Shown: positions 5,088-60,382 of the stretch, piece after piece
Layout: the number at the start of each line of letters is the position of its first letter
Position numbering within the stretch: position 1 is the stretch's first letter
Source of the DNA: a virus
Taxonomy: Duplodnaviria > Caudoviricetes
Strand: one strand, 5' to 3'
Length of the DNA: 61,446 bases
Virus record (IMG/VR): IMGVR_UViG_3300021347_000002
Coordinates: 1 to 61,446 of that record
Notes under the pieces: generated by a model
The model's database searches: none
Seen by the model: the letters and a program-made list of their open reading frames with translations, nothing else
Told to the model about the DNA's origin: nothing
Translations under genes and position numbers: made by a program

Positions 5088-5097
5088 TGCAACACTA

Positions 5098-7606: not shown

Positions 7607-7631
7607 GGTGGGGGTCGCAGCAGACCCTCCG

Positions 7632-25263: not shown

Positions 25264-25340
25264 TAAAAAACTATTCTCTCTTACCCTTAGTTCTATAATA
25301 TATATACTATAGAACTAAGGGTCTGGAGAAAAAGTTTTTA
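25264..25340 (-). repeat. ~77-bp palindromic element, copy 2 (inverted)
   Basis: Reverse complement reads TAAAAACTTTTTCTCCAGACCCTTAGTTCTATAGTATATATATTATAGAACTAAGGGTAAGAGAGAATAGTTTTTTA; begins at the TAA of ORF 25338-25718. Confidence 0.95.
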
Positions 25341-25718: not shown

Positions 25719-25826
25719 TATTTCTTATTGGTTTGGTTTGGGTCGTCAGTTTCAACGTGAAACAACGCACACCCTACAACGTCGATGCCTGTCGAGACAT
25801 AGACGCTGTGTGGGTATGGGTTTCTA

Positions 25827-26582
25827 CTAGTGGACACTAGTAAGTGCAGGCTCAACGACGAAGCCTGTCTCATCCTTCTTGGCCAGCCCCTTCTCAGTAA
25901 GGCCCACGACCACACCCTTCCTGTCGAGGAACCGAAGGTCTGTCTCGTCACCACTCACCACATCAAGCCCTAAGTATTTCTCAGGTAGCTGACCACGGAA
26001 CACGACTGCGGTGTTCACTCCCATGTGGGCCAGCTTCTTGATCCAGTCGTCATTGGTAACTTCAGACCGTGAGTAGGTGAGGTGGTAGTTGCTAGGCCAG
26101 CAGCCACCCTTCAATCGTTGGGATGCCTTAGCCCTAGACATTGACTTGGTGTAGTCGTAGAAGGTCACATCAGGGAAGAGATCGAAGATTGTCTGGTCCC
26201 TCTTATCGAAGAGGCTGGTCTTCTCACCTACCACAGTGAGCTTCTCCCATGAGATGTCCGATGTCAGGTTGAGTCGGAAGCATGGCTTGAGTCCGGCTCT
26301 CTTAGCTGACTTGATACTGGACCTGATCTCCTTGATCAGCTGCTCCATGAAGGCTTCACGATCTTCAAAGAACATCTTGGTCTTGTCGATACGTGCTTGC
26401 TGCACGGTCTTCATGATGCCTCGGCCTGCTGTATTGAGGCAGGCTAAGGCACATCCCTTCGATGCATAAGGGCAGGTATTATATCCTGATATCTTGCTAG
26501 GGGCTAGGTGAATACCGTAAGTGCGGTATCCGATTGCTTCTCCCTTGATTGTCTTTGTGTTTCCGGCGTTTAGTAGTTTCAT
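25827..26582 (-). CDS. Gp88-like phage protein
   Basis: CPYASKGCALACLNTAGRG, RLNLTSDI, FYDYTK, YHLTYSRSE, GDETDLRFLD, GLTEKG. Confidence 0.8.
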   Translation of the reverse strand: MKLLNAGNTKTIKGEAIGYRTYGIHLAPSKISGYNTCPYASKGCALACLNTAGRGIMKTVQQARIDKTKMFFEDREAFMEQLIKEIRSSIKSAKRAGLKPCFRLNLTSDISWEKLTVVGEKTSLFDKRDQTIFDLFPDVTFYDYTKSMSRAKASQRLKGGCWPSNYHLTYSRSEVTNDDWIKKLAHMGVNTAVVFRGQLPEKYLGLDVVSGDETDLRFLDRKGVVVGLTEKGLAKKDETGFVVEPALTSVH

Positions 26583-26589
26583 TTTTCTT

Positions 26590-26618
26590 ATTGGTTATTG
26601 GTTATTGGTTATTGGTTT
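26590..26618. repeat. TTGGTTA heptamer tandem repeat in gene leader
   Basis: About 4 copies here and about 3 at 26954-26973; reads (AACCAAT)n on the coding strand. Confidence 0.85.
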
Positions 26619-26630
26619 TACTAGTGTCCA

Positions 26631-26945
26631 CTAGTATAGTTCTTCGACTGTCTTCTCCCACTCTTCGAGAGATCGATCAGTCCACTTCGTCCAACGTGGT
26701 CGGATGCCGTGTTCTTCTTTGTATAGATCCCAGTATTCCTCCCATAAGAGAGTCCGTTTGAAATCACTTACAGTCTCACAACCATAGTGTTTGCAGTGGT
26801 CGATGAGATCATCTGAATAAGTTAGGAAGGTCGGTTTAATACATGAGCCTTCATTCAACTTGATGAGTTCTCCCATATAAAGACGCATCTCCTTACTCTC
26901 GGCAAGCATGACAGATGGGTGTTCGGTTTCATTATTTGTTTGCAT
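26631..26945 (-). CDS. Hypothetical protein
   Basis: 104 aa, YWDLYKEEHGIRPRW motif; its stop lies inside an ACTAGT palindrome. Confidence 0.7.
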   Translation of the reverse strand: MQTNNETEHPSVMLAESKEMRLYMGELIKLNEGSCIKPTFLTYSDDLIDHCKHYGCETVSDFKRTLLWEEYWDLYKEEHGIRPRWTKWTDRSLEEWEKTVEELY

Positions 26946-26985
26946 TATTCTATTTGGTTATTGGTTATTGGTTTACTAGTGTCCA

Positions 26986-27297
26986 CTAGTTGTCTCGGTT
27001 GAGGGGGTCGAGGTTGAATTGCTCTGCGACTTCTGGGGATAATTCAAAACAGATATACTCATGCTCTGCATTACCATATCGGACTCCCACCGTAAGCCAT
27101 CTACACTCTTCGTTTGAGTAAAAACGATAGGCATCTAGCTTATCTGTGGTTTGGCATAAGTATTTAGCCGTGTCTGTTACCGTCCTCTCGTAGTGCGGGT
27201 TATCTTTATTGTATTGAGCGGTCTTGGCCCGCATCACTTCCCACAAATCAAGAGGGACTGCTCCAGAGTAAGGCTGGTTCCAATGGTTACTTGTCAT
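26986..27297 (-). CDS. Hypothetical protein, paralog of the C-terminal domain of 27287-27988
   Basis: Shares AVPLDLWE, DKLDAYR, VG(V/I)RYG and FNLDPLNRDN; start reassigned to ATG 27297. Confidence 0.75.
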   Translation of the reverse strand: MTSNHWNQPYSGAVPLDLWEVMRAKTAQYNKDNPHYERTVTDTAKYLCQTTDKLDAYRFYSNEECRWLTVGVRYGNAEHEYICFELSPEVAEQFNLDPLNRDN

Positions 27298-27992: not shown

Positions 27993-28214
27993 CTATTTGG
28001 TTTTTGTTTTTGTTTTTGTTTTACTAGTGGTCACTAGTAGTTCAGATATTGTTTCGTCAGCTTCTACCTTGCTTACACAGTGGTAGTATTTTGTCTTTAA
28101 ATAAAAGCCACGGCCACATGGCGTTGGCTTGCTTATGCGGTTATGCTCTACAATGTAGGCTCCCCACTTGTCCCGCCTCGTAAAGCAGAACCCGTTTGGG
28201 TGTGTGTATTTCAT
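27993..28214 (-). CDS. Hypothetical protein
   Basis: 73 aa; C-terminus reads through an ACTAGT palindrome and the next leader (LVTTSKTKTKTKTK). Confidence 0.6.
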   Translation of the reverse strand: MKYTHPNGFCFTRRDKWGAYIVEHNRISKPTPCGRGFYLKTKYYHCVSKVEADETISELLVTTSKTKTKTKTK

Positions 28215-28573
28215 ATGTTTCTTATTGTGATTCCTCTACATGTCGAGGGTATCTCGGTTGGTTCTATCGACTCAGGATCTGACATGACGTAGCCGAACTT
28301 CACACCGTTCCACTCATAACCTTTCAGGTCACATGGAACATGGTGCAACGGTTCGTCATACCGGAATCGGGGTTCGTCAGTGTATCGAATGGCGTTGGAG
28401 ATGGTGACGTAGCCAACAAGCTTTGCCTTACCTTTGCCAGTCTGGATGACTCCAACCCTCTTGCCTACAAGCGAGGCAAGGGAGTTGGTGTTTCTTGTTT
28501 CAATTACCTTCTCTCCTGCGAGAATGAGGTCGGTCCAGTTCTTCTGGCTATCGTTGCAATTGAACGCTTTCAT
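28211..28573 (-). CDS. ASCH-domain protein
   Basis: LILAGEKVIETR (GxKxxExR motif), LVGYVTI. Confidence 0.8.
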   Translation of the reverse strand: MKAFNCNDSQKNWTDLILAGEKVIETRNTNSLASLVGKRVGVIQTGKGKAKLVGYVTISNAIRYTDEPRFRYDEPLHHVPCDLKGYEWNGVKFGYVMSDPESIEPTEIPSTCRGITIRNI

Positions 28574-28593
28574 GTTTTACTAGTGGTCACTAG

Positions 28594-28752
28594 TTATTTT
28601 CTACTTCTACGTTTCTTTACTTCATTGACTGCTTCCATCACAAGGATGTAAAGGAAGACAGGCATTGCTAATACGCTAGCGATTACTAGCAGGACTTCCG
28701 GCCCCTTCATTCCTTGAAGGGACTCGCCAATTACTTTTGCTATTTCGTTCAT
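28594..28752 (-). CDS. Small membrane protein (52 aa)
   Basis: Translated by hand: MNEIAKVIGESLQGMKGPEVLLVIASVLAMPVFLYILVMEAVNEVKKRRSRK; flanked by two ACTAGT palindromes. Confidence 0.65.
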   Translation of the reverse strand: MNEIAKVIGESLQGMKGPEVLLVIASVLAMPVFLYILVMEAVNEVKKRRSRK

Positions 28753-28777
28753 AGTCTGTTTGGTTTACTAGTGGACA

Positions 28778-29320
28778 CTAGTCGATTGTGATAAGGGATT
28801 GGATATCGTCCAATGAAGATTGGACCTTAGCAGCTGCATCCGTATCAGGTTCCATGTCTTCCAGCTTCGCTTTTACGCGGCGAAGGGTTTTCAGGATGTT
28901 AGCCAGTTCATCTTCTGCCTTCTTTTCTTTCGGTTCGACATACTCGCCCCAAAGCTCAGGATCTTTCTTGAACCTTCCCCAACATCCACCAGCGCGGCTG
29001 TTGAGTTTCTTGGCGGAAATCTTCTCACCCTTCCAATCAAGGTAGAGCTTGTAAGCTCCTAGCATATCAGCATTGAAGTCAGGCCATTCCCATCCCGCTA
29101 GATAGCACATATTGGCTATCTCGGTGAAGTAAGGGCAGGCATTCGTGCTTCGCTTACTAGTGGCCACTAGTGCTTCAAAGATTGCTAAGCTGGCAGCATT
29201 GTCTTCCCCTTCAGCTGCGAGGGTTTCCCATCGGTTGAATAGGGTAAGGGATGCTTGGTCTATGCTATCAAACATTAGGTCGATAGCGGCTACGAGGTCA
29301 TTTGCAGTTGTCTTTTTCAT
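28778..29320 (-). CDS. Hypothetical protein, first gene of the leftward early block
   Basis: ATG at 29320 follows an AAACCAAATAAGCAA leader; stop lies in an ACTAGT palindrome. Confidence 0.7.
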   Translation of the reverse strand: MKKTTANDLVAAIDLMFDSIDQASLTLFNRWETLAAEGEDNAASLAIFEALVATSKRSTNACPYFTEIANMCYLAGWEWPDFNADMLGAYKLYLDWKGEKISAKKLNSRAGGCWGRFKKDPELWGEYVEPKEKKAEDELANILKTLRRVKAKLEDMEPDTDAAAKVQSSLDDIQSLITID

Positions 29321-29636: not shown

Positions 29637-29900
29637 ATGAGCATGCCGGAATACGACCCGAAGAAGAAAAAAGAGTATTACCAGAAACATCGAAAAGAGC
29701 GTCTAAGATACCAAAACGACTATTATGAGCGGACGAAAAGTCGGAGGGAGCGAACTTTTGAGATTATGGAAGAGCTGGAGCCTAGTCAGTTTAATACGTA
29801 TAAACAGCAGTTAAGTGACTACAACAGAGAGTATTACAAGAAAAACAGGGCCAAGATATTGCGAAAGCGTGCGGAGGCGAGAGCGAAAAAGTCGAAATAA
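29637..29900 (+). CDS. Small basic Lys/Arg/Tyr-rich protein
   Basis: KEYYQKHRKE/REYYKKNRAK repeats; start at 29637 or 29643. Confidence 0.65.
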   Translation: MSMPEYDPKKKKEYYQKHRKERLRYQNDYYERTKSRRERTFEIMEELEPSQFNTYKQQLSDYNREYYKKNRAKILRKRAEARAKKSK

Positions 29901-29974
29901 AAACTTTTCTTCCAGACCTTTAGTTCTATAGTATATATATTATAGAACTAAGGGTAAGACAGAAAAGTTTTTTT
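29898..29974 (+). repeat. ~77-bp palindromic element, copy 3
   Basis: TAAAAACTTTTCTTCCAGACCTTTAGTTCTATAGTATATATATTATAGAACTAAGGGTAAGACAGAAAAGTTTTTTT; begins at the TAA of ORF 29637-29900. Confidence 0.95.
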
Positions 29975-30006: not shown

Positions 30007-30438
30007 ATGAAGATACCGAAAGGGTGGAAGCAAATAGAAGGAGCGTCTAATTACGCGCTATCGCCAGAAGGATATATACATAGTCTGAAGTCAGGTAAAC
30101 CGATGTCACGGAGGTGGCGGGGTCTCCGTTTCTGGTCTTCAGTTACGTGTGACGACGGTAAGTATCGTCAGATCGCACACGACGAGTTGCGGTATCAATC
30201 GCACGATTTACCGGATGAAGAGATGAAGATTGTGAAAGGCTACCCTGACTACAAGGTGACGCCATATGGTGCAGTCTGGAAATACCGCAAGACGCCTCGG
30301 AAGTATCGCAATAACCCGTTCTTAGTAGAGACTAAAGACATCGGTAACAAGGAGTATGTTAGGATGGTTACTGAGGACGGTAGACGTCATTGGGTCCGTA
30401 TGGAGAAGATCATGGAGGAGGCTTACCCAAATGATTGA
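30007..30438 (+). CDS. Tandem NUMOD4-like domain protein
   Basis: WKQIEGASNYALSPEGYIHS and MKIVKGYPDYKVTPYGAVWK; no HNH motif seen. Confidence 0.65.
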   Translation: MKIPKGWKQIEGASNYALSPEGYIHSLKSGKPMSRRWRGLRFWSSVTCDDGKYRQIAHDELRYQSHDLPDEEMKIVKGYPDYKVTPYGAVWKYRKTPRKYRNNPFLVETKDIGNKEYVRMVTEDGRRHWVRMEKIMEEAYPND

Positions 30439-30462
30439 CATTGACCGTCAATTCAATATACT
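30435..30462 (+). promoter_or_regulatory. Sigma70-type promoter for the portal operon
   Basis: TTGACA-16 bp-TATACT; ATG at 30471. Confidence 0.65.
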
Positions 30463-32989: not shown

Positions 32990-34170
32990 AAGCAGCCGTA
33001 GAGGCCACTGAAGCCGTAGAAGCACCAACTAATGTAGATGCTTTACCCGATGCCGCTGAACCGACTTCATTTGAAGCATCGTTAGAAGCAGCGTTTGCTA
33101 ACCTTGACCAAGCACCCGCAGAGCCTGAACCGGAACCGGAGCCAGCCGCAGAGCCTGATCCAGAACCCGAACCAGTGGTAGAGGAACCAGTTGCTGAGGA
33201 ACAGGATACAGGAAACGAGGTTCAGGAATCAGATGACCCAATCGAAAATTTAACGGAAGACATCGGCGACGAGTGGACCCCTAAAGCGGCTAATCGTTTT
33301 AAGGAACTCAAGACTGAGTTAAAGACAAATCGATCTGAGTTGGAGCAGTTGCGTCAGCAATCGAAGGAATACGAATCGAAGATTCAGGAGTTGACGGGAC
33401 TTGCTGAGAGTAAGGACGTTGAGCAGCTACAAGAAAGGCTTGCTGAATATGAACAACAGCAAGCTCTGACTAATCTGGAGCAGACCCCTGCTTATAAGCA
33501 GATAGTGTCGGAGCCGTTGGAAGCTCTTGTTGAGCAGGCTGACCAGATCGCTGACAAGTATGAAGTCGATTCAGATTCATTGATTGACATATTAGCGTTA
33601 GACGATCCTGAAGAACAGGAAGAACAACTTGGTGAGTTGTTGCCAAATGCTAGTGACCGTGATAAGGCTAAGATTTATCGGATCATGGAAGACATTGACC
33701 CGATTCTTAAGAGGCGTGAGAAGCTTTATGAGAATGCTGATGCTGCATTAGCGGAAGCTAAGAACCTTGAAGAGCAGCAGAAAGCAGCCACAGCAGCGGA
33801 ACAAGCCCAACTTAGGCAGAATATCACAAGAAATGTCGTCGAAAGAGTCCAGCAAAAGTTGCCCTTCCTCAAAGGAATCGAAGGTCTTGACATGTCAGCT
33901 ATCCAGCAGAAGGCATCAGAGACTGATCCTTCTGTCCTCCATCCTGTTGACCACGCCTACAATGCGGTCTCAGCCCAAGTGTTCCCGACGGTTGTTCGGC
34001 AGTATCTTGAGATGAGGAAAGAAGTCGAGTCATTGACTGATCGTCTTGCTGAGTATGAGGATGCGGAGCCAGCGATGTCTGGTCAGACGAAAGCCCCTGC
34101 CGCTAGTTCTGGAGTTCCTGAAAATGGGAGCTTTGAAGAGCGAGTGAACGCTGCTTTGGGTGCTGTGTGA
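32974..34170 (+). CDS. Capsid scaffolding protein (putative)
   Basis: Highly acidic, PEPE-rich N-terminus, long coiled coil; directly upstream of the capsid gene. Confidence 0.7.
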   Translation: MDAPVEAAVEATEAVEAPTNVDALPDAAEPTSFEASLEAAFANLDQAPAEPEPEPEPAAEPDPEPEPVVEEPVAEEQDTGNEVQESDDPIENLTEDIGDEWTPKAANRFKELKTELKTNRSELEQLRQQSKEYESKIQELTGLAESKDVEQLQERLAEYEQQQALTNLEQTPAYKQIVSEPLEALVEQADQIADKYEVDSDSLIDILALDDPEEQEEQLGELLPNASDRDKAKIYRIMEDIDPILKRREKLYENADAALAEAKNLEEQQKAATAAEQAQLRQNITRNVVERVQQKLPFLKGIEGLDMSAIQQKASETDPSVLHPVDHAYNAVSAQVFPTVVRQYLEMRKEVESLTDRLAEYEDAEPAMSGQTKAPAASSGVPENGSFEERVNAALGAV

Positions 34171-34175
34171 CCCCG

Positions 34176-34203
34176 TTGACAGATCGCCAGACAGTGTTAA
34201 TAT
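34176..34203 (+). promoter_or_regulatory. Sigma70-type promoter for the major capsid gene
   Basis: TTGACA-16 bp-TAATAT with TG just upstream of the -10. Confidence 0.65.
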
Positions 34204-34208
34204 GCGCT

Positions 34209-34306
34209 TATCAGTTGGGTTGCTCTAGCCTTAAATAGTTCTAAACAACTGGTAAAGCACATAGAAACTCAGGTTGCTCTAGCCATTGATTAGTTCTAAG
34301 AGGTTC
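34209..34306 (+). ncRNA. Candidate tandem cis-regulatory RNA motif in the capsid 5' leader
   Basis: Two copies of GGTTGCTCTAGCC-N5/6-TAGTTCTAA, each closed by a different stem. Confidence 0.5.
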
Positions 34307-34371
34307 GCCCTAAAACTCTTTAGTTTCCGACCACGTTGGCTGGAAGCGCAAACCCTTATTTATTTAAAACA

Positions 34372-35664
34372 ATGTCTACCTTTAATTTGGGGTCTACCGG
34401 CCTCGCTTCAATCAACACTATTCTCGCTGAAGAAGCCAACCGCATCGGCAGCGACATCTACTCACGCACGCTCCACACCTCTCCTTGGTTGGACCTTACT
34501 AAGCAGTCCGCATTTCCTGATGGAATGGGCTACCAGCAGACCACGCTCGTATATGATCGCGCTATTGCGACATCTGATGCCGCAGGAACCACTGCTGCTG
34601 GAGCTGGCGCATGGTCTAATGTTGGTGGGACATTCTCTAGTCAGACCCCAGCTTCAAATACTGGAGACTTAGTTAATGTCAATGACACTGCTGAGGACGT
34701 TCAAGGCGGTCGCGGTGACGGGCAAGATGTCACTGACAATAACCCCGCCGGAACCGACCGACGCTCGTTCGTTCAGTTCAACAAGAAGCTCAAGCCTTTC
34801 TCGTTGCAACGCGCCGTAATTGAGTCCCCGAAGATTTCTTTGGAAGACCTCCGCTTCGCCGCACACCGTCAGGACCAGCTTCGTGCTATCATGGACATCA
34901 TGACGCAAGTTACCCGCAACACTTGGGAAAACCGCTACCGTGATGAGTTTCACGCCATCGCTGACAACAAAGTTCTTTGTGCAGCTACTGGAACCGCAAT
35001 TACTGCCGCTCAAGAGTCTATTGCTAAAGTTCCTACTTCGGCTGTTACTGCTAACGTATCTAACGCAATCCTTGATAAGATCTACTACAGTCTTATCCGT
35101 GGGGGTGCAGGTTCTAACGCTTACGGTCGTGAAAACGGTCGCCCAGTGTTCTCACTTGTCCTTTCTTCTGAGGCTTCCTATCAGCTCCAGACCGAAGCCG
35201 GATTCCGTGATGACGTTCGCTACAACAACGCTAAGGTAAGTGACCTGATCGCTCCACTCGGTATCGAGAAGTCCTTCCGAGGATTCTACCACCTTGTTGA
35301 TGACCTCGCTCCGCGTTATGCTTCTAACTACTCACTTGTTGCGCCTTACAGTGTATCCGCTGGAGGAATTGCTACTCCTAACCCCTCATACGAGTCAGCT
35401 CCGTTTGAAGCAGCCTACGTTCTTCACCCTGAAGTTTGCGAAGCCCTCATTCCTAATCCAATGAGTGGTTCTAACGGACTCAGCTTCGACCCTGTCAACT
35501 ACCGTGGTAAGTTTGACTGGAAGAACATCGCTAACGAGATTACTAACCCTGACGGAACCATCGGATTCTTCCGTGGTGTTCTTGCCAGTGCTACCAAGCC
35601 CATTAAGACTGAGTTTGGTTATGTTCTCCTCTTCAAGCGTGACTCCAGCACTCCTGCTGCCTAA
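34372..35664 (+). CDS. Major capsid protein
   Basis: 430 aa from ATG 34372; follows the scaffold; codon usage looks strongly biased; has its own promoter and a downstream hairpin. Confidence 0.75.
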   Translation: MSTFNLGSTGLASINTILAEEANRIGSDIYSRTLHTSPWLDLTKQSAFPDGMGYQQTTLVYDRAIATSDAAGTTAAGAGAWSNVGGTFSSQTPASNTGDLVNVNDTAEDVQGGRGDGQDVTDNNPAGTDRRSFVQFNKKLKPFSLQRAVIESPKISLEDLRFAAHRQDQLRAIMDIMTQVTRNTWENRYRDEFHAIADNKVLCAATGTAITAAQESIAKVPTSAVTANVSNAILDKIYYSLIRGGAGSNAYGRENGRPVFSLVLSSEASYQLQTEAGFRDDVRYNNAKVSDLIAPLGIEKSFRGFYHLVDDLAPRYASNYSLVAPYSVSAGGIATPNPSYESAPFEAAYVLHPEVCEALIPNPMSGSNGLSFDPVNYRGKFDWKNIANEITNPDGTIGFFRGVLASATKPIKTEFGYVLLFKRDSSTPAA

Positions 35665-35672
35665 TTAATCTA

Positions 35673-35706
35673 GTTGAGTAGGGGTAGTTCGCTGCCCCTA
35701 CTTAGC
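35673..35706 (+). terminator. Stem-loop after the capsid gene
   Basis: GTTGAGTAGGGGTAG-TTCG-CTGCCCCTACTTAGC. Confidence 0.6.
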
Positions 35707-35723
35707 GTAACTTATATAGAATT

Positions 35724-35921
35724 ATGCCAACACTAGACGACGCACCAACAGGTCAGGTCTCAACTTTAGCTGGAGTTAATGCTGGAGTAACCGCAGACGT
35801 AGCTACTCGCGCTCATGGAGACGATCTGATCCAGATCTATGACGTCTCTGAGCAAAAAGCTAAAACGATTAAGCTTTCAGAACTCGCTATTGCTCTTCAG
35901 GCAACTCTTGATCCAGCCTAA
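35724..35921 (+). CDS. Small capsid-associated protein (putative)
   Basis: 65 aa, between the capsid gene and the terminator. Confidence 0.6.
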   Translation: MPTLDDAPTGQVSTLAGVNAGVTADVATRAHGDDLIQIYDVSEQKAKTIKLSELAIALQATLDPA

Positions 35922-35946
35922 TCCCGAATCACGTAACACTTAACAT

Positions 35947-35991
35947 GAACCCCGTTACCTGTCTCTAAAACGGGTAGCGGGGTTCTTTTTT
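35947..35991 (+). terminator. Rho-independent terminator
   Basis: GAACCCCGTTACC...GGTAGCGGGGTTC followed by TTTTTT. Confidence 0.85.
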
Positions 35992-36006
35992 ACAGAAACA
36001 ATTATT

Positions 36007-36831
36007 ATGTCATTAGATTTTAAAACATTCGATGCTTTCAAAAAGTTAATTGCAGCTAACCCTGAGATTCTTAATTTGGTTCAGTCAGTAGGCCGCGACG
36101 CTACTCAAGTTGCTTCTCTTCCATCAAGAGCGAGGGGGGCGATAAAGCGTGGAGCTGCTGAACTAGGAGAAGGGGTAGCTGGCTTAGTTGAAAAAGGAGC
36201 TGGGTTGGCAGACAAATATCAACCTCAGATTAGTTTAGGAGAAGAGGGGCCTTCAGCGAAGATCCCTTACAACCCTCTTATACCCTTTGATGCCGCTGAC
36301 CTTGCCGCCGCCGCAGGTTTAGCTAGAGAAGGATTGTCACAGGCTTCCGACTCTAAAACAGCGGAAGAAAAAATGTATGACAGTGCGCTTGAGGCAATGG
36401 ATAAGCGCATTGAGGAACTTGATAGTCCACCATCATCAGCACCAGCTCAACCTAAAGAAAGTCTAGAAGAGCGGAAAAAAAGGTATGCAGGTAACAAAGA
36501 AAAGATCAGAGCTATCCGAGATCGGAAAGATGCTGAACGCGCTGCCGCGTCTGAGGAAGAAGAACCTTCAGAAAGTGGTGGCTTTTCCGACATACTAGCA
36601 GGTATCTCAGACCAAGTAAAAGCAGGGGTAGAAGCTTCTGAAGAACCAGAAACTGACTACACTGAAGAAGCTATTGGTCTGTTCAAGAATACTCACGCTA
36701 CTGAGTTTGACCCTAAGTCCAGCATGGACAGAGGTAAGCTTGAAAAGATGAAAAAGCTACTTGCTAAACAAGGTGGTTTAGGGGATATGACTGCTAACCA
36801 GTTTGCCCTTCAAGTTTACCGCGACGAATAA
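36007..36831 (+). CDS. Hypothetical protein
   Basis: 274-aa ORF in the structural block. Confidence 0.7.
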   Translation: MSLDFKTFDAFKKLIAANPEILNLVQSVGRDATQVASLPSRARGAIKRGAAELGEGVAGLVEKGAGLADKYQPQISLGEEGPSAKIPYNPLIPFDAADLAAAAGLAREGLSQASDSKTAEEKMYDSALEAMDKRIEELDSPPSSAPAQPKESLEERKKRYAGNKEKIRAIRDRKDAERAAASEEEEPSESGGFSDILAGISDQVKAGVEASEEPETDYTEEAIGLFKNTHATEFDPKSSMDRGKLEKMKKLLAKQGGLGDMTANQFALQVYRDE

Positions 36832-37151
36832 TGGACGACGTATACCAATCCGAAGATTCTCCTCAGCATGAAAATGCTGAGAAGGATCTGGAGATGATCC
36901 ATCAGCAGCTTTCTAATGTGCAAGCTAATGTTGAGGCTCTCCTGCAACAGTGTGGCTGTGGCTCGCCTAGGCTTTCAGAAGCGTGGGTTCAGTCAAAAGT
37001 GACGCTGGCCAATGATTATCTGGACACGGTTCATTCCTACGTTGTGAACGGCGGCCCAATGAAACCGGACGCTGGACAAGGCGACTCAGATAAGGTAGGC
37101 TTCGTCATTGCCGTGGAAAAGGCTATGACGGATGGCAGCAGCAAAGCATAA
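36831..37151 (+). CDS. Hypothetical protein
   Basis: 106 aa; EAWVQSKVTLANDYLDTV helical motif. Confidence 0.7.
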   Translation: MDDVYQSEDSPQHENAEKDLEMIHQQLSNVQANVEALLQQCGCGSPRLSEAWVQSKVTLANDYLDTVHSYVVNGGPMKPDAGQGDSDKVGFVIAVEKAMTDGSSKA

Positions 37152-37476
37152 CATTATTGTAAGTCGTGGCGAGGATTACTCGTTTACGTTGACTGTTAAG
37201 ACGAGTGGTAATGCGGTCGTTAATATAACTGGCGACACATTCACTGCTGAGATCAGGCGCGACGGAGGTAAACCTCTTGTTGCGTCTTTTTCTTGTGTTA
37301 TTACGGATGCGGTCAATGGTGTTTTGACTGCGACCTTGAATAAGGCGGAGAGCTTAAAGCTTGATGGGAATGTCAACTACAAGTGGGATATGTTCCGTTT
37401 TGAGAACACTTCTAGCGTAACGACCCGATTAATCTATGGAGACGTAAAGGTTGAGAACAACGTAACTGACATATAA
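37132..37476 (+). CDS. Tail fibre adaptor-like beta protein
   Basis: RGEDYSFTLTV...DAVNGVLT...YKWD...RLIYG pattern, typical of genes preceding fibres. Confidence 0.55.
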   Translation: MAAAKHNIIVSRGEDYSFTLTVKTSGNAVVNITGDTFTAEIRRDGGKPLVASFSCVITDAVNGVLTATLNKAESLKLDGNVNYKWDMFRFENTSSVTTRLIYGDVKVENNVTDI

Positions 37477-38690
37477 TGGCTGTAGAGATCACAGAAACAC
37501 TCCGTCACAATTTAGCGGTAACTGAAGACAACTGGCAACTTACGTTGACTTCTGGGCCTGCTGGACCTGCTGGAGCTAATGGCACTAATGGGACGAACGG
37601 CACTAATGGAACTAATGGTGCGGACGGCGCGGCTGGCCCTAATGTAATTACTAGTAGCACAGCTAGTGACGGGACGGGTAACATTAACATAAGTAATGTG
37701 GTTAGTGACACAGCGGAAGTTGAATCGTTACTGACAATATCAGGCGATCAGCTAGTGGAAGACGGTTCTCAGATTGCTTTTGGTGCAGGTGAGGATTTAA
37801 AAATATACCACGGCTCAAATAACAGCTACATTAAAGAATCAGGTACAGGCGGTTTGTTTATACAAGGTGATACTACAATCACTATAGAAAAGACAGACGG
37901 CGAGAACATGGCCGAGTTTATTCCTGACAGTGCTGTTAATTTGTATTACAACAATGTGGTAAAGTTAGCGACGAGTGCGACAGGTATCACAACTCAGAGC
38001 ATTTATTTGAGTGGTGATATTGATCTCCAAGACACTTCAGGAGCTAACTCAGGTAAAATTAAAATAGGTAGTGGTGACGACCTACAGTTATACCACGACG
38101 GCACTCAATCGATAGTAAATAATCTAACAGGAAACTTATTTATAAGTACTCTGTCTGCTGATACAGACATAGTTTATTACGCAGATAATGGGTCTGGTAG
38201 TGTAGCAGAATATTTTAGATTGGATGGTGGTTTAGCCTCTTCAGGAACTAGGTATACAACTTGGCCAGATAATAGTAGAGTAACATTTGGAGCGGATCAG
38301 GATCTCCAACTCTACCATGATGGTTCTAATAGTTACATAGACGACAGTGGTACGGGTAATTTAAACATCAGAGCAGCCAACCTGAACCTACAGAAATATA
38401 CTGGCGAGACCTTCATCGCGTGCGTAGCAGATGGATCGGTATCAATATATCACGATAATGCGCCCCTCTTACAAACAACCCCTAGTGGGATTCTTGTTAC
38501 TGGAGTTGTCCAAAGTGCAGTATACCCGTTCAGTACTTTATCAAATATAGCATCCCCCGCCGCAGGTATGAGGGCATTTGTTAATGATTCTAACCAGTCG
38601 CTATCTTCACATCACGGTGCTATTGTAGCTGGTGGTGGGTCACATTATGTCCCTGTATATTACGATGGTAGTAACTGGCGTATAGGCTAA
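37476..38690 (+). CDS. Tail/head fibre with collagen-like segment
   Basis: GPAGPAGANGTNGTNG (Gly-X-Y) plus three G..DL.(I/L)YH repeats; ends VYYDGSNWRIG. Confidence 0.75.
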   Translation: MAVEITETLRHNLAVTEDNWQLTLTSGPAGPAGANGTNGTNGTNGTNGADGAAGPNVITSSTASDGTGNINISNVVSDTAEVESLLTISGDQLVEDGSQIAFGAGEDLKIYHGSNNSYIKESGTGGLFIQGDTTITIEKTDGENMAEFIPDSAVNLYYNNVVKLATSATGITTQSIYLSGDIDLQDTSGANSGKIKIGSGDDLQLYHDGTQSIVNNLTGNLFISTLSADTDIVYYADNGSGSVAEYFRLDGGLASSGTRYTTWPDNSRVTFGADQDLQLYHDGSNSYIDDSGTGNLNIRAANLNLQKYTGETFIACVADGSVSIYHDNAPLLQTTPSGILVTGVVQSAVYPFSTLSNIASPAAGMRAFVNDSNQSLSSHHGAIVAGGGSHYVPVYYDGSNWRIG

Positions 38691-38702
38691 ACCTAAAAGA
38701 TA

Positions 38703-40889
38703 ATGGCTCTTAACCCATCACCGCAGAGACAGTCAGTCGTTACGTTCCCTACACCGAACGTCAACGACATATTATTCTTTGAGTCTGTAGACGCAGAGCG
38801 GGTCGGTACAGAGATACCGGAATACGGTAGTAAGCACCCTGACTATAAGAAGTGGCCAGATCATCGGTTAGTCTATGTTCAATCAGTAGACGAGCAGAGC
38901 CGTTACTACCGTTACTACTATGCGGCGGACCAGCTTGATCAGGATAACGACAACTGGTCATTCAGTGAAGCAGATATCGGCGGCACAAAGTTTGATGCAG
39001 TCACGAGAGATTACGTAGTTAGGCGTAGTGAATTTAGTTCAGAACTTCCAGCTATGGGTTCAGCGATGCCCGACGTTCCGGCTAACAAGTTCAACGGGAC
39101 TTATGTGTTGTCTCAGCGCAAGCAGGTTCCTATAAGTGATAAAATACTTAGCGGGCTTTATGTGGTTGAGCAGAGGGTCTATGTAAAGAAGGTTCCTTTG
39201 TATAAACTGAATTTTGATGATTTCTTTAGGACGACTAATTACATAAAGCAGACTCTCTACCACAAAGGGGAGAAGCCCGACAATGTAAATACAATCGAGT
39301 ATTTAGTCGAGAACCGCAATAATGATTATTGGGGCATGAATAACGGAATCGTAAGGACTGCCCAACAGCTGTCCGACAATTGGTATTCCGTTACGGAGCA
39401 GGAGGTTGTTAAGTGTAACTCTGTCTCTGATAGAGAAGAGCTTCAGACAAACGCGCGAAGCTCTGTTCTCGCGGCTATAGCTAACAAGAATCCATCAGAC
39501 ATGAACTTGTTCAGCACCTATGCTACAGGTTCATTAGATGCCTCTGATCCTTTAACCAGACCGAGTTTAGTGCGTAACGCTAACTGTTGGGCGCATAATT
39601 TAAAAGGTATTACAGGCTTTGTTGCTTATAACAATAGGCTAGGGAGCGAGGGTGACGGTAAATTCCACAATGGCGTAGCGATAACACCAAGGCACGTCTT
39701 ATATGCGGAGCATGACCCATATGCAGTTAATGACGTAGTTTATTTTTGTTCTAGGAACAGCGAAATCTACGCCCGAAAAATTCTATCGGTAAAAAACCAC
39801 CCATCAGGAGGTTATGGTGCTGGTGATTTCGGTATAGCATTACTAGACGCGGACTTACCTGCTGCTATCGATATCGTTAAAGTTTTACCTAAAGACGCTT
39901 ATCAATATTTCCAGCTAGACGAATTCGGGACTCTTGCTTATGTTAATCAATGGACGACCCCTCCTGCTGAGGCGGAAGAGGTTTTAGTGTTGCAAACTGA
40001 CGCAGAAGAAAAAGCTCACATACGGAAAATCCAAAACCTCGACTTCAAAGATTTCGATTACGATAATCCAGCGGACACGTATGGGATTTTTCAGATATCT
40101 CCCGCTACTAATCTCAGCACATGGTCAGAAACCCTAGTAGGTGGGGATTCCGGTAGCCCAGCTACTTTAGTCATAAATGGAGAGTGTGTTTTACTTGGGT
40201 TACTTACTACCAATGGAGGAGTAGGAGGTTTTGTTAGTGCGCCTAGAAACTTTAGGGATATCAACGACCTTATATCATCCATTGATTCAGATTATGAGAC
40301 GTATTCGTTAGGGGATCCCGCATTACAGACTTACTTCTCTGATGGGTATCAATTGAATACTATTGATCTAGGTTCTAAATTTACAAGCCATCGTCCAGAG
40401 GAGGGGGGATTCTACTCGGTAAATGACTGCGCTCGTTTACAATACGAGACTGTTATTACGTATTATTTCCCTCCTATACTGGCGGGAGTAGAGTTTGATG
40501 TCTGGGAGTTGAGGTCAGGTGGGGAGAGAACGTTTCCGAGAGTGCAGTATGAGAAGGGTGCATTCAAAGGACCGTGCAGAGCTGTTGTAAACATTAGTTG
40601 GTCGGCTACCCAACCTGCGGGAGTCGCAGCAGACGAGAAGCCGGAGCCTGAAAAGATCGAAATCGTAAATCCGTTATTCACTTTAAACATACCGGCGACA
40701 CTTCACGGAGCAGTAAACTTTACGGTCAGCACCGGATCTAATGATGAGACTTGGAAACTGACTAACGCACAGTATACTAAAGGGGCGACGAATGTCACAA
40801 GTTGGGAGCCTCATGTGGCTTCCTCTGAAGTCAAACCTTTTAGGGGTGGTTGGTTGATGCAGACAACGACTGTCTACCCACCGTCATGA
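38703..40889 (+). CDS. Structural protein with an embedded trypsin-like serine protease domain
   Basis: GVAITPRHVLYAEH, GDFGIALLD, GGDSGSP (His-Asp-Ser triad motifs in order). Confidence 0.7.
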   Translation: MALNPSPQRQSVVTFPTPNVNDILFFESVDAERVGTEIPEYGSKHPDYKKWPDHRLVYVQSVDEQSRYYRYYYAADQLDQDNDNWSFSEADIGGTKFDAVTRDYVVRRSEFSSELPAMGSAMPDVPANKFNGTYVLSQRKQVPISDKILSGLYVVEQRVYVKKVPLYKLNFDDFFRTTNYIKQTLYHKGEKPDNVNTIEYLVENRNNDYWGMNNGIVRTAQQLSDNWYSVTEQEVVKCNSVSDREELQTNARSSVLAAIANKNPSDMNLFSTYATGSLDASDPLTRPSLVRNANCWAHNLKGITGFVAYNNRLGSEGDGKFHNGVAITPRHVLYAEHDPYAVNDVVYFCSRNSEIYARKILSVKNHPSGGYGAGDFGIALLDADLPAAIDIVKVLPKDAYQYFQLDEFGTLAYVNQWTTPPAEAEEVLVLQTDAEEKAHIRKIQNLDFKDFDYDNPADTYGIFQISPATNLSTWSETLVGGDSGSPATLVINGECVLLGLLTTNGGVGGFVSAPRNFRDINDLISSIDSDYETYSLGDPALQTYFSDGYQLNTIDLGSKFTSHRPEEGGFYSVNDCARLQYETVITYYFPPILAGVEFDVWELRSGGERTFPRVQYEKGAFKGPCRAVVNISWSATQPAGVAADEKPEPEKIEIVNPLFTLNIPATLHGAVNFTVSTGSNDETWKLTNAQYTKGATNVTSWEPHVASSEVKPFRGGWLMQTTTVYPPS

Positions 40890-41923
40890 GTTCTGAAGAT
40901 AACAGCTTGGATATAGAAGTCCCTATCTCTTACGATATACCGGACGAAGGTCTGAGTGACTACACAGTGGCACTTTCAGACGCTGACTTGGTCTCAACAA
41001 GTTCAGTTGTCCCAGAACCTCCGGCCTACAAGCCCTTTCCGTTTGCTTTACGTCCTGCTCCTAACGAGAAGATCCACATCTATTTCGGTGTTCTGGTCCA
41101 CCAGATCAACCGGATGGTATTCAATACGGACGGGTTAGTGTCCCAGACTGGTGTTAATAACCCACAGACTATAGTCCCATCTAATCTCTCTTCTTCTGAG
41201 AACCGATACAAGTTCTACACACTAGACTTTCGTGGGAATGTTTATCTTTATTGGGAAACTGATTCGTCGGGCGGTGTAACTTTGTGCGATATTAGAGGGG
41301 ATGATGAGAATGGCGCACCTCCCACTCAACAAAATTTACCTAATGACAGCGGCGGAAAGTTCTACGTTAAGATAGGTAATGTGGCTGCTAATAATGCGGG
41401 TTATGAGATCTCATCTCTAGATCAGAACATATCTACTGACGTTTACTGGTTAACAGCTTTTGGAATCCAAGAAGAGTCTTCTAACGGTTCTACTTCAGAT
41501 TCTACCTCCGGCTCTGATAAGTCTACTGCTATTGTGCCTATGGACTGGCACGACAAAGGATACGGCGCGTTATTCACGATGGAATCCAATGAGGTTCTCT
41601 TTGAGTTCGTGATGAGGGACGTGCCATTAGAAGGAGCCAAGACAGTAGCCCGAATCGATGACAGGTTCTTAGCAGTATGTGAACGTGACTCTATGGTAGT
41701 CACCGGAATATCTGGAGACAAGCTAGGGCCAGTCGGAGCAGTCATTAAGGGCAATGAAGTTATATTAGATGCTTTACCAGTTTCCTTCTTACGACCAAAC
41801 AAAGTAACATTGAAATTGACTGGAACCCGTAAAGGGTTTAAAGATTTTGATATGCCAGAGCGCAGCAAAGAGCAATTCATCGCTAACGAGAGGTTTATTA
41901 ACTCAGCTTATCCTAGAGATTAG
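40886..41923 (+). CDS. Putative tail-associated protein with Ser-rich linker
   Basis: ATGA overlap with the upstream gene; ESSNGSTSDSTSGSDKSTAIVP. Confidence 0.6.
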   Translation: MSSEDNSLDIEVPISYDIPDEGLSDYTVALSDADLVSTSSVVPEPPAYKPFPFALRPAPNEKIHIYFGVLVHQINRMVFNTDGLVSQTGVNNPQTIVPSNLSSSENRYKFYTLDFRGNVYLYWETDSSGGVTLCDIRGDDENGAPPTQQNLPNDSGGKFYVKIGNVAANNAGYEISSLDQNISTDVYWLTAFGIQEESSNGSTSDSTSGSDKSTAIVPMDWHDKGYGALFTMESNEVLFEFVMRDVPLEGAKTVARIDDRFLAVCERDSMVVTGISGDKLGPVGAVIKGNEVILDALPVSFLRPNKVTLKLTGTRKGFKDFDMPERSKEQFIANERFINSAYPRD

Positions 41924-41925
41924 TT

Positions 41926-43245
41926 ATGTCGAGTGGTAGTAGTGACAGCGGTAGCGGAAGCCAGAGTGTCGATAGACTACTGGATCTACAGCTAATTGGA
42001 AGTGACTTAGGGGATTCTGGTAATCTTAAATGGCGGGGAATCGCGAAGAGTGGTAGCAAGCTCTACGCTACCCCTTATATTTCTAGTAATATCCTAGTCA
42101 TAGACCCCTCAGATGATACGACCAGCGAAATAGTAAATCCAGTAACTGGGAGCGGAAACCAGAAGTATGTGGATTCTTTTACTGCTAGTAACGGAAAAAT
42201 ATATGCTAACCCCCATTCCGCTTTTAATTATCTAGAGATTGATGGAACAGGTTCTACACCTGTAATTACGGCTAGACCCTCAAGCAGTCTAACCCACACC
42301 AATATACGAGGAGGGGCTGAAGCTAATGGTCACATATACGGCAGTATTTATTCTAGGAATGTCTCCACCTACGCCAACCCATTCATTTCTAAGTTCAACC
42401 TAACTTCTTTCTCACAGACGTTATTGAGTTTTACTCCATCGCGAACTGGAGGTATTTATTATTACAGAGCTGGTTCAAGTAACACGCCGAGCTGGAGTGA
42501 AGAACTAGATAGTGATCTAAAGTGGATGTATGATTCATACTTTGGTGCCACGAAAGCTCCAAACGGAAAAGTATATCTCACACCTTATGGAGCGGATCGT
42601 ATCGCTATCCTTAACCCTTCTAATGACAGTATTACATTAGGTTCAGATCTTCTGACGGGTAACGAGCCTTATTATACGGGTTCTTACCACCGAAACATCT
42701 GGCTTAACCACGCCTATTGGAACAAATATTCCGGCGGAACCTATGCCCCTTCAAATGGATGCATCTATTGCTTCCCAAGGCATGGTAATGCTATCCTGAA
42801 GATAGACCCGTCGGATGACTCCGCGACTGAAATCCAACTTCCTTCAGCCTTACGGATTGCTAAGACTACACACACTTACGATCCTTCTGATCCAGTTACG
42901 ACTTTCAAAATGAAGTCGTTCTCGTCTGTTCTAGGTCCAGACGGAACCATCTATTCTGTTCCCTATGAGATACCTTACATATTCTGGATCGACCCAGCGA
43001 CGGATCAAATAGGGTATAAGGAGATCTCTTCAGAACTTGCAGGGTCGGGATCTAAGACGAATACCGCCACTGATTCGTGGTATTCTTACGGTGTAACTGA
43101 AGGAGACTACATATACATGGCTCCTCAGAAGGCGAACTATGTGATTAGAGTTGGTTTCCCACCCCCTCCGTCTTCTTCATCCTCATCTTCATCCGGCTCC
43201 GCTAAAAGTTTTTCCTCTGTGTCCGAAGGAGAAGGAAACCCATGA
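41926..43245 (+). CDS. Beta-propeller-like protein with Ser-rich termini
   Basis: Repeated (A/S)xNGKIY..P....IL.IDP blades; poly-Ser at both ends. Confidence 0.65.
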   Translation: MSSGSSDSGSGSQSVDRLLDLQLIGSDLGDSGNLKWRGIAKSGSKLYATPYISSNILVIDPSDDTTSEIVNPVTGSGNQKYVDSFTASNGKIYANPHSAFNYLEIDGTGSTPVITARPSSSLTHTNIRGGAEANGHIYGSIYSRNVSTYANPFISKFNLTSFSQTLLSFTPSRTGGIYYYRAGSSNTPSWSEELDSDLKWMYDSYFGATKAPNGKVYLTPYGADRIAILNPSNDSITLGSDLLTGNEPYYTGSYHRNIWLNHAYWNKYSGGTYAPSNGCIYCFPRHGNAILKIDPSDDSATEIQLPSALRIAKTTHTYDPSDPVTTFKMKSFSSVLGPDGTIYSVPYEIPYIFWIDPATDQIGYKEISSELAGSGSKTNTATDSWYSYGVTEGDYIYMAPQKANYVIRVGFPPPPSSSSSSSSGSAKSFSSVSEGEGNP

Positions 43246-43913
43246 AGAACCTAACTGACTGGTTTGACCGCGTTTACGTGATCAACTGCGCCCATAGGCC
43301 GGATCGTCTTGAAGAGACGAAGAAGCATCTGGAAGAAACCGGAATGGCTAATAATGACTGGGTTCATTATTATCCTGCTATAATTGGCGACTGGACAACG
43401 TGTCCGGCTGACTGGGGATCTGGCAGAGGTGCGTGGGGTTGTCTGCGTTCGCACCAAAGGATTCTAGAAGACGTAATTCACGACAGAGACGATAACGGAA
43501 ACCCAAACCTCATGAACGTATTGGTGTTGGAAGACGACGTGATCTTCAAAGAAGATGCTTTGGAGAACTTAAATAACTTTATGGAAACAGTGCCAAAGGA
43601 TTGGGGGCAGATTTATTTAGGTGGCCAACACCGCCGCGACCCTACACCTACTGAGTTCCCTAACGTAATTGTTGGGAACTCAATTAACAGGACACACGCA
43701 TACGCTGTTAACCAGCCTACATTCACGCACTTTTATCGGCATATCTCGTATGCGACGGACTACCGGAATACTAACAAGCACATCGACCACCAGCTTGAAT
43801 TAGCCCACCGCCGTAAGGATTGGCCAGTTTACTGCCCGAAAGAGTGGGTTGTCGGCCAGAGAGCTGGTTCGTCGAATATAAGCGGGAAGACACTTGAAAC
43901 TAAATTTTGGTAG
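43242..43913 (+). CDS. Glycosyltransferase, GT25-like
   Basis: VYVINCAHRPDR, GCLRSH, VLVLEDDV, THAYAVN, HID. Confidence 0.85.
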   Translation: MKNLTDWFDRVYVINCAHRPDRLEETKKHLEETGMANNDWVHYYPAIIGDWTTCPADWGSGRGAWGCLRSHQRILEDVIHDRDDNGNPNLMNVLVLEDDVIFKEDALENLNNFMETVPKDWGQIYLGGQHRRDPTPTEFPNVIVGNSINRTHAYAVNQPTFTHFYRHISYATDYRNTNKHIDHQLELAHRRKDWPVYCPKEWVVGQRAGSSNISGKTLETKFW

Positions 43914-43965
43914 TGTAAATGAAGAGTGGACAAACAGTAACCGCTTTTGTAAAGCTGTTTAGACG

Positions 43966-44661: not shown

Positions 44662-44690
44662 TTGACTTGACCACCTAAACCCCGTATATT
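44662..44690 (+). promoter_or_regulatory. Sigma70-type promoter, leaderless
   Basis: TTGACT-17 bp-TATATT; ATG at 44697. Confidence 0.65.
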
Positions 44691-59507: not shown

Positions 59508-59699
59508 TTACGAGTCCAAATCTAACTCGGTCTGCTCACCAGTAACATGCTGGAGTGCTTCCCGAACTACCCTCAACTTTCTCAAGTTGGCTCCGACTTG
59601 GGAGAGCTGATCCTCGACTTCAGCGATCATGCCGTCGAGCATCTTGATCTCTTCGAGAAGGAGATCACGGGTTTTTTGTTCTTTCTCTTCGTCAGTCAT
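59508..59699 (-). CDS. Small coiled-coil protein
   Basis: 63 aa with a heptad pattern. Confidence 0.7.
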   Translation of the reverse strand: MTDEEKEQKTRDLLLEEIKMLDGMIAEVEDQLSQVGANLRKLRVVREALQHVTGEQTELDLDS

Positions 59700-59701
59700 A
59701 A

Positions 59702-60358: not shown

Positions 60359-60382
60359 AATATCAATTATTGTTGGTTTGGT

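Follow-up and report, generated by a model that had tools for sequence, protein, structure and literature searches.

Tandem irregular RNA hairpins conserved in the capsid gene leader of an uncultured phage group: a candidate factor-binding operator

In the T7 gene 10 cassette, the phi10 promoter is followed by a leader with a 5'-terminal hairpin, the capsid gene and the T-phi terminator. The E. coli thrS operator contains two similar hairpins that are bound by dimeric threonyl-tRNA synthetase; their loops mimic the anticodon arm, and they lie next to the ribosome site. Tandem similar domains are also known in the glycine, NAD+-I and guanidine-II riboswitches, boxA is bound as single-stranded RNA, and the put RNA of HK022, which serves early operons, consists of two stem-loops that render RNA polymerase resistant to terminators with no need of a protein. 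Here we describe the leader of the major capsid protein gene in an uncultured marine virus of the Caudoviricetes (IMG/VR record IMGVR_UViG_3300021347_000002; the whole record, 61,446 nt, is the window referred to throughout), in which a short motif occurs twice and forms a tandem pair of irregular RNA hairpins between the promoter and the start codon. A cis-acting structured leader in a phage late mRNA is a known kind of element; the RNA family and its putative recognition surface are new.

The locus resembles T7 gene 10 in having a dedicated capsid promoter, a hairpin at the predicted 5' end, a strong terminator and downstream structural genes apparently served by read-through. Unlike T7, it uses a host sigma-70-type promoter, has two invariant irregular hairpins plus a third, and lacks a strong Shine-Dalgarno sequence. 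With thrS it would share, under the working model developed below, paired similar leader hairpins as sites for one factor, but its loops are free except for GCC, conservation falls on a mismatched helix, and the hairpins end about 66 nt before the AUG. The boxA elements of rrn leaders and lambda nut, which are recognized by NusB/NusE, are likewise promoter-proximal GYUCU RNA ahead of a unit with an internal terminator, but the leader motif fails both the consensus GYTCTTTAANA and the TGYTCTTTGAAAA of the candidate host phylum, and its pentamers are paired. The likeness to put is one of description only, in that both are pairs of stem-loops that follow a promoter on a phage RNA and are cis-acting, and it differs in that the leader element is tied to one late gene. 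Finally, the tandem riboswitches (glycine, NAD+-I/nadA motif, guanidine-II) similarly have two small domains per leader, each with a variable stem around invariant nucleotides; here, in contrast, there is no Rfam match and no recognizable expression platform, and the core is a symmetric duplex.

The motif, GGTTGCTCTAGCC-N5/6-TAGTTCTAA, is present at 34218-34244 and 34272-34299, the same two positions given in an initial annotation that a model had made from the sequence alone. Its 13-mer, GGTTGCTCTAGCC, lies at 34218-34230 and 34272-34284 and its second box, TAGTTCTAA, at 34236-34244 and 34291-34299, with a spacer between the boxes of TTAAA (5 nt) in copy 1 and ATTGAT (6 nt) in copy 2. Neither the 13-mer nor the second box has an exact match anywhere else in the window. 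The surroundings were also as annotated, with a sigma-70-type promoter at 34176-34203 ahead of the motif and the capsid gene (34372-35664, encoding 430 amino acids) behind it; these features, and all those of the leader described below, are on the plus strand. The leader length had been put at about 165 nt and is about 162 nt, because the ATG at 34372 is the start common to the capsid homologues.

Unit 1 spans 34208-34255. Its closing arms, TTATCAGTTG (34208-34217) and CAACTGGTAA (34246-34255), form 10 pairs including one G-U and enclose an unpaired GG (34218-34219), an inner helix (34220-34227 with 34236-34243) and an apical loop (34228-34235, GCCTTAAA). Folded alone, this copy reaches -13.1 kcal/mol (z = -3.2), and 2 of 200 shuffled sequences fold as well. 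The linker that follows (34256-34263, AGCACATA) makes up, with the bases next to it, the sequence CACATAGA, which recurs in the leaders of several lineages where it was read directly (L001, L010, L029, L060 and L062). Unit 2, at 34264-34306, consists of a closing stem (GAAACTC at 34264-34270 with GAGGTTC at 34300-34306), an unpaired GG (34272-34273), an inner helix (34274-34281 with 34291-34298) and an apical loop (34282-34290, GCCATTGAT). The annotated view that the two closing stems differ in sequence and can both pair holds well for copy 1, but copy 2 is weaker than had been implied, since 6 of its 7 pairs form with one A-G mismatch and the copy folded alone is no more stable than its shuffles (z = +1.05). 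The stem of copy 2, which is weak in this clade, is believable only because homologous stems in other lineages pair and covary; second-unit stems in the homologues average -8.2 kcal/mol (40 distinct units). Folded as one molecule, the whole leader is unremarkable (z = -0.95).

A scan of IMG/VR with the capsid protein produced 75 loci at 42-90% identity, 71 of which had at least 250 nt of upstream sequence. We defined a relaxed unit as GYU, three bases, a loop, three complementary bases and then UYC. At least two copies of this unit were found in 59 of the 71 capsid leaders, one copy in 7 and none in 5, compared with a background of 0.15 per leader-sized stretch. The exact 13-mer is unchanged down to approximately 50% capsid protein identity. 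A covariance model built from 16 units, R1, was then applied to the 75 loci and the window and gave 107 matches in these 76 sources, every one of them on the capsid (plus) strand and just 5' of the capsid start. Within the window, with filters off, R1 found the two units only (46.7 bits, E = 5e-11 for unit 1; 33.9 bits, E = 3.5e-7 for unit 2), and the next best match had an E value of 2.1.

The exact two-box pattern was present in 87 IMG/VR stretches and in four loci from metagenome-assembled genomes (MAGs); a capsid homologue lies directly downstream in 85 of these 91, and the other six are cut off. At least 116 metagenome stretches also carry the exact pattern, and among the 116 listed a capsid homologue follows in 107, nine are cut off and in none does the pattern lie elsewhere. 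Thus, in every public stretch that is long enough to check (192 of 207), the exact pattern is directly 5' of a capsid homologue. As these stretches, from viral records, genome assemblies and metagenomes, include no off-target occurrence, the combination of 13-mer and 8-mer can serve as a marker of the lineage. R1 found no copy outside phage contigs in three MAGs, and no match in 150 further genomes of the candidate host phylum, that of an assembly (G001) with a related phage contig. The possibility that the motif is a copy of a host element, such as a type III antitoxin repeat, a CRISPR repeat or an rRNA segment, was therefore rejected, as the host genomes searched hold no copy.

Capsid relatives at 56-58% identity from four loci (L036, L038, L039 and L042) lack the motif and have in its place, behind a TTGACA promoter, a different conserved hairpin, GACCTGCCAGTAGGTC or GTCCTGCCAGTGGGAC. 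A leader module appears to have been exchanged between these lineages. Searches for more distant relatives gave three loci (L351-L353) with one representative protein (P0127) and none with another (P0134). The three distant loci have a TTGACA promoter and a long structured leader without the motif, together with an AAGGAGG Shine-Dalgarno sequence, which suggests a different host group.

The initial annotation had interpreted the motif as a conserved core with covarying stems that forms a tandem structured RNA. Covariation was examined in the homologous leaders and is present. The closing stems are fully different between lineages, yet they pair: for 88 distinct units the cognate flanks gave -9.3 kcal/mol, compared with -4.2 kcal/mol for non-cognate combinations. 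In order to have a test free of alignment, 243 distinct units were thinned to a set of 49 in which the 5' flanks have at least 6 differences over 12 positions. In this set the cognate arms gave -8.45 kcal/mol and the non-cognate arms -3.85 kcal/mol, and none of 2000 permutations was as low. In a model-fitted alignment, double changes are seen at all 10 closing-stem pairs, with 359 doubly changed cells against 140 in shuffles, and the covariation score is 0.414, compared with 0.117 for shuffles and at most 0.092 for slid controls; this alignment is biased towards the model, a bias from which the energy test is free.

The two boxes do not form a loop inside the closing stem; they pair with each other. 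In a plain MAFFT alignment, core position 10 (A10) and the first base of the second box (B1) read AU 81 times, GC 9 times, CG and UA once each, and another combination once, while the two adjoining pairs (C-G and U-A) are invariant. Divergent units still pair, with all three apical pairs changed in L044 (UCG/CGA) and two changed in L076 (CGG/CCG). The register of the inner helix below the apical pairs is G5-C, C6.U and U7.U, followed by U4.U and U3-A. Variant sequences fit this register: UUCAG, found in four distinct first units (seven loci), would form U4-A and U3.G; UUUUA would form G5.U; and in the L016 clade the C.U mismatch is swapped to U.C.

Since the stems pair and A10 covaries with B1, each unit is one irregular hairpin, in which a closing stem that can have any sequence leads through an unpaired GG to an 8-bp helix, capped by an apical loop that starts with GCC. 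The strands of the 8-bp helix, 5'-UUGCUCUA-3' over 5'-UAGUUCUA-3', are near-identical, and the helix is nearly two-fold symmetric; its center is G-C, C.U, U.U, C-G, and the C.U and U.U mismatches are obligatory. Beyond the GCC the apical loop is free in sequence, and loops as short as 5 nt and longer than 20 nt are found; the spacer 3' of the second box is 0-7 nt, and the spacing from unit to unit is 52-90 nt, with an extra small hairpin contained in the longer spacings. Allowing G-U pairs lengthens the stems more on the plus strand (46 units better, 30 worse; Wilcoxon p = 9e-5, alignment-free), and this bias agrees with an RNA transcribed from the capsid strand. The same strand test on the model-fitted alignment was only mildly informative (55 G.U against 38 A.C cells). 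We conclude that a real, conserved RNA structure is present in the capsid leader.

We favor the reading that the tandem hairpins are a factor-binding operator that sets the translation or stability of the capsid mRNA, within a cassette of promoter, leader, capsid gene and terminator, and give it a probability of about 0.45. Each unit is probably a separate docking module, because about 20 nt are fixed while the distance between units, the size of the loop and the spacer 3' of the second box all vary, which is the pattern of protein-binding operators. The inner helix, the GG and the GCC would together form the recognition surface for a trans-acting factor. This factor would most likely be a protein, possibly bound as a dimer per unit or as one molecule per unit, and could be encoded by the phage or, given the invariance of the motif, belong to the core RNA machinery of the host. 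Binding at both units would then set the fate of the capsid mRNA through translation, stability or both, and the capsid output from an apparently strong host-polymerase promoter would be tuned by the bound factor.

Several results weigh against such an operator. No binding partner was found among the open reading frames (ORFs) of the window. In a phyletic profile, the window ORFs, leaving out those that shadow longer opposite-strand genes, were scored in five motif-bearing and four motif-less genomes; only three ORFs (4857-5126, 30007-30438 and 36831-37151) were present in all five of the former and none of the latter. None of the three products has an RNA-binding domain by PHROGs, nor does that of 4857-5126 by Pfam, and the products of 4857-5126 and 36831-37151 have no basic patch. 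Phylogeny confounds the profile as well, since the genomes without the motif are also the more distant relatives. The units end about 66 nt before the AUG, which makes it unlikely that they simply occlude the ribosome site. It is furthermore unusual for an RNA co-evolving with a phage protein to keep about 20 nt near-invariant at approximately 50% capsid identity. Lastly, a generic role of leader structure, for example in stability, could be older than the motif, because the leaders of the distant loci (L351-L353) are structured without it.

An occlusion-type translational operator of the kind seen in MS2 coat or thrS was tried separately as a class for the element and rejected, because a third hairpin and an A/U-rich stretch separate the end of unit 2 (34306) from the AUG (34372). 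As to the partner in the favored operator reading, it may be a slowly evolving host component, since the motif is invariant across phages whose proteins are about 50% identical.

The same invariance leads to an alternative in which no phage protein takes part. The hairpins would be a self-contained riboregulator, either tandem sensors that respond to a small molecule or signalling nucleotide of the infected cell, or a device in the nascent RNA by which host transcription or translation is reprogrammed, and would time or boost capsid synthesis and the read-through into the tail genes. Near-invariance of about 20 nt at approximately 50% protein identity is the reason to consider a metabolite or a core host machine as the partner, and we regard this alternative as unlikely without being far-fetched.

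The first of these possibilities, a tandem riboswitch in which each unit is a small aptamer that senses a metabolite, an ion or a signalling nucleotide and couples capsid synthesis to the state of the cell, was weighed against the structure of the units and against known RNA families. A variable closing stem, invariant non-Watson-Crick nucleotides and a variable apical loop are the architecture of a small aptamer, and invariance across diverse phages suits a small-molecule partner. On the other hand, the covariance models of Rfam 15 gave no match at the gathering score over the whole window and none even at E <=10 in 34100-34450, so that this check, proposed in the initial annotation, leaves the motif outside the known families. 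No expression platform was found either, as there is no terminator-like site between 34204 and 34372 and no Shine-Dalgarno sequence to sequester. No competition of the third hairpin with the unit 2 stem was seen, no systematic search for alternative pairings having been made. Moreover, the conserved region is a nearly symmetric duplex and not a pocket-forming junction, and the units are 52-90 nt apart. Taken with these points, a riboswitch is quite improbable.

The 13-mer, in its DNA or RNA form, is in none of the papers searched, where only shorter sequences were hit and in unrelated work, and among the titles and abstracts listed on structured phage RNAs none deals with a capsid-leader motif. 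A set of 8,495 unnamed candidate structured RNAs with covariation evidence has been reported from intergenic regions of IMG/VR (PMC10690425), and the leader motif could be one of these anonymous candidates. The two share their data source and type of evidence, and the text available to us from that report describes no tandem hairpin of a capsid leader.

The layout of the transcription unit bears on a further explanation, in which the hairpins stabilize or process the mRNA autonomously, the 5'-terminal hairpin shielding a very abundant capsid mRNA from decay that depends on its 5' end and the irregular helices perhaps serving as ribonuclease sites. The promoter, TTGACA-16-TAATAT with a TG extension, is the sole sigma-70-like site in 33000-36500, and a scaffold-like ORF upstream of it ends at 34170. 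Transcription is predicted to start at about 34209-34211, 6-8 nt past the -10 hexamer, which is the base of the unit 1 stem. Among 41 promoters of relatives that score >=9, TTGACA is retained in 36, and in 40 the -10 hexamer ends 4-15 nt ahead of the first closing stem. Judging by this distance, unit 1 would coincide with the predicted transcript start or lie only a few nucleotides from it, where an end-shielding hairpin would be expected.

Downstream of the two units is a third hairpin by predicted folding (34325-34345; TTCCGACCA, loop CGT, TGGCTGGAA), which is found with lineage-specific sequence in most of 30 diverse leaders (mean z = -1.73; z < -1 in 21 of the 30). It is followed by a spacer (34346-34371) that is A/U-rich just before the AUG and has no Shine-Dalgarno sequence. 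This lack is not special to the capsid gene, because a Shine-Dalgarno-like sequence precedes only 2 of 45 gene starts in the window; starts typically follow A-rich sequence, for example AATA ATG. The cassette is closed by a strong intrinsic terminator at 35947-35991, which has a stem of 16 pairs and a T6 run. Beyond it, a gene begins at 36007, and up to 44662 there is no promoter-like site of similar quality, so the genes in 36007-44640 probably depend on read-through.

A cassette with its own promoter, leader, capsid gene and strong terminator, and no comparable promoter until 44662, is what a stabilized capsid mRNA might be expected to have, and the distant relatives keep the promoter and a long structured leader of other sequence. 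A stem suffices for stability, however, and does not need about 20 invariant nucleotides with mismatches, GG and GCC; nor is a second, internal copy of use in protecting a 5' end. We consider autonomous stabilization or processing unlikely, if well worth keeping in mind.

Sequences from RNA libraries add a weak hint on this point. Among the runs listed, 14 that are recorded as RNA hold part of the window, and contigs from four runs (two studies) were compared; such contigs are weak evidence, as they show presence in an RNA library but say nothing of RNA ends, strand or level. A contig that is identical to the window spans 34223-34471 and so takes in the greater part of unit 1, all of unit 2 and the third hairpin, and the beginning of the ORF; a second spans 34335-35744. 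As the former runs from 34223 through copy 2 into the ORF, copy 2 at least sits on capsid-containing RNA-library sequence. That single contig begins at 34223, in the upper strand of unit 1 and right after adapter sequence, as would be seen if the hairpin were a processing site. Another contig of the same run, which lies inside the ORF, also carries adapter at one end, and therefore adapter-joined contig ends alone prove no natural RNA end. The stretch 34208-34222 is uncovered among the contigs listed from the four runs, and contigs of relatives end at 34188 and 34207. A gap of this kind would suit a transcript boundary close to the predicted start, or a processed end, but since RNA ends cannot be read from contigs and records may be hidden by a filter, we draw no conclusion from it.

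The probable read-through into the tail genes raises the question of antitermination, in which nascent hairpins with four GYUCU pentamers, similar to the boxA core, would load Nus factors or act on RNA polymerase. In position the element suits this role, lying directly past a conserved promoter (34176-34203) and ahead of the terminator at 35947, although this is a positional agreement only, and the genes in 36007-44640, without a comparable promoter, would need read-through. Within the candidate host phylum, the rrn leaders of nine loci contain boxA-like elements of the form TG[CT]TCTTTGAAAA, which continue with TTT and A-rich sequence. One of them reads GGTTGCTCTTTGAAAA and has 9 nt in common with the motif, and the C-to-U change seen in the L016 clade is found in the rrn boxA-like sequences too. 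The motif, however, matches only the GYTCT of the boxA consensus GYTCTTTAANA given for gamma-proteobacteria (PMC5725501) and then departs from it. The pentamers are also base-paired by covariation, and partial read-through of a terminator requires no special device. In our judgment the chance that the hairpins act in antitermination is slim.

Membership in the boxA family itself was rejected on three counts. The motif strands GCTCTAGCC and GTTCTAA match the first five bases (GYTCT) only, the boxA equivalent of the candidate host phylum (TGYTCTTTGAAAA) is likewise not matched, and the pentamers are helical, as seen from the A10:B1 covariation and the variants in the flanking pairs, which excludes a single-stranded site. 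Complementarity of the motif to 16S rRNA was measured as duplex energy in three genomes (loci L174, L180 and L182) and was no better than that of shuffled motifs, 0.07-0.56 of which did as well.

The initial annotation had also noted that part of the motif, TAGTTCTA, occurs in the arms of a 77-bp element, and had raised a shared DNA-binding factor as an alternative. Three imperfect palindromes of about 77 bp are present in the window, at 7531-7607, 25264-25340 and 29899-29973, with TAGTTCTATA arms, an AT-rich center and flanking A- and T-runs; they sit at the boundaries of gene blocks and resemble bidirectional terminators or operators. TAGTTCTA is indeed found in both arms of all three. If the repeats act as DNA, they would be four direct GYTCTA operators, with a regulator that possibly also binds the TAGTTCTATA palindrome arms, and their location directly past the promoter is one where a roadblock repressor could act. 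In five near-complete relatives, though, TAGTTCTA occurs in the two leader copies plus 0-2 single sites, which is the control level, and never as an inverted pair. The exact palindrome arms matched 15 stretches; among capsid-family contigs these were only the two closest relatives, with three copies each, and the rest were unrelated contigs. The sharing of TAGTTCTA is thus confined to this phage and its two closest relatives and lends no support to a common factor. In addition, compensatory changes in the flanking stems and the inner pair would be meaningless for duplex DNA, and we find a DNA-level role for the repeats very hard to credit.

The product of 34372-35664 gave no match in sequence and profile searches of PHROGs, Pfam and the PDB, and Pfam on 90 relatives returned nothing relevant. 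In the protein atlas, used as a lead only, capsid families were found on 11-13% of the members of clusters near this protein. An AlphaFold2 model from a 90-sequence alignment of diverse relatives had a pLDDT of 85.5 and a pTM of 0.81; an earlier model from a 24-sequence alignment was dropped (pLDDT 44.9). The best Foldseek matches of the retained model are the coat proteins of Shigella phage B2, Pseudomonas phage DEV and phage N4 (E about 1e-10). In total, 247 PDB chains matched at E <=0.001, and among the matches listed all are phage capsid or prohead entries. On this structural model the gene product is a major capsid protein of the HK97 fold. Its nearest structural neighbors are in the N4 group of phages, and the capsid gene appears to use the host polymerase.

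The capsid family contains at least 1,575 protein clusters at 90% identity (509 representatives at 50%), and no cultured relative was found in a phage collection by megablast, blastn or tblastn. Contigs with capsid relatives have been binned into assemblies of Opitutae, Verrucomicrobiales and Blastopirellula (Verrucomicrobiota and Planctomycetota), although binning is weak evidence of a host, and one capsid cluster is named after a Bacteroidota assembly. The papers listed on phages of Verrucomicrobia and N4-like phages concern only known N4-like phages of other hosts. The bins of Verrucomicrobiota and Planctomycetota matter since almost no phage biology is known for either group, and an invariant, covariation-supported RNA at the head of the capsid gene offers an entry point to the control of late expression in this uncultured phage group. 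The motif is a candidate new RNA family, and its symmetric duplex, in which C.U and U.U mismatches are obligatory, would be an unusual recognition surface. If its partner should prove to be a host factor or a ligand, the phage would be tapping core host machinery by RNA alone.

Elsewhere in the window are genes for a large terminase (5744-7531), a family A DNA polymerase and a primase-like protein, and no tRNA or tmRNA gene was found. Two further good sigma-70-like sites are seen on the plus strand in the structural module, TTGACA-16-TATACT at 30435-30462 and TTGACT-17-TATATT at 44662-44690. The former lies at the annotated TTG start of a 752-aa ORF, the true start of which may be further downstream, and the latter in the gap ahead of the gene at 44697; the late region may have no host-type promoters other than these two and that of the capsid gene.

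A giant ORF at 10172-20881 (plus strand, 3,569 aa) contains arrays of PEVTEAA and AAKK repeats at 12725-13385. It is kept at 23-40% identity in all nine relatives compared, has no sequence match in the PDB and only a low-complexity match in Pfam, and resembles the N4 virion RNA polymerase in size only. The sequence TTTACTAGTGnnCACTAGT, a palindrome of 7 bp around a 2-nt center, is repeated seven times in the minus-strand early region (25820-25841, 26614-26635, 26969-26990, 28017-28038, 28573-28594, 28761-28782 and 29150-29171), often after TTGGTTA-type repeats, and at least one lies 5 nt 5' of a start codon (gene 28211-28573). These copies could be operators; the giant ORF and the likeness of the capsid fold to N4 suggest, as another possibility, that a virion RNA polymerase uses them as hairpin promoters.

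A glycosyltransferase family 25 domain (E = 2e-7) is encoded at 43242-43913 on the plus strand, amid tail and structural genes. The ends of the record repeat one another in a non-identical manner, with 1-1087 (likely to about 1860) corresponding to 59584-60672 (and on to the end). Identity is 99% over the first 300 nt and falls to 88% further inward, where the offset shifts by 2 nt. These could be diverged terminal repeats, or the assembly could have joined two strain variants of a circularly permuted genome.

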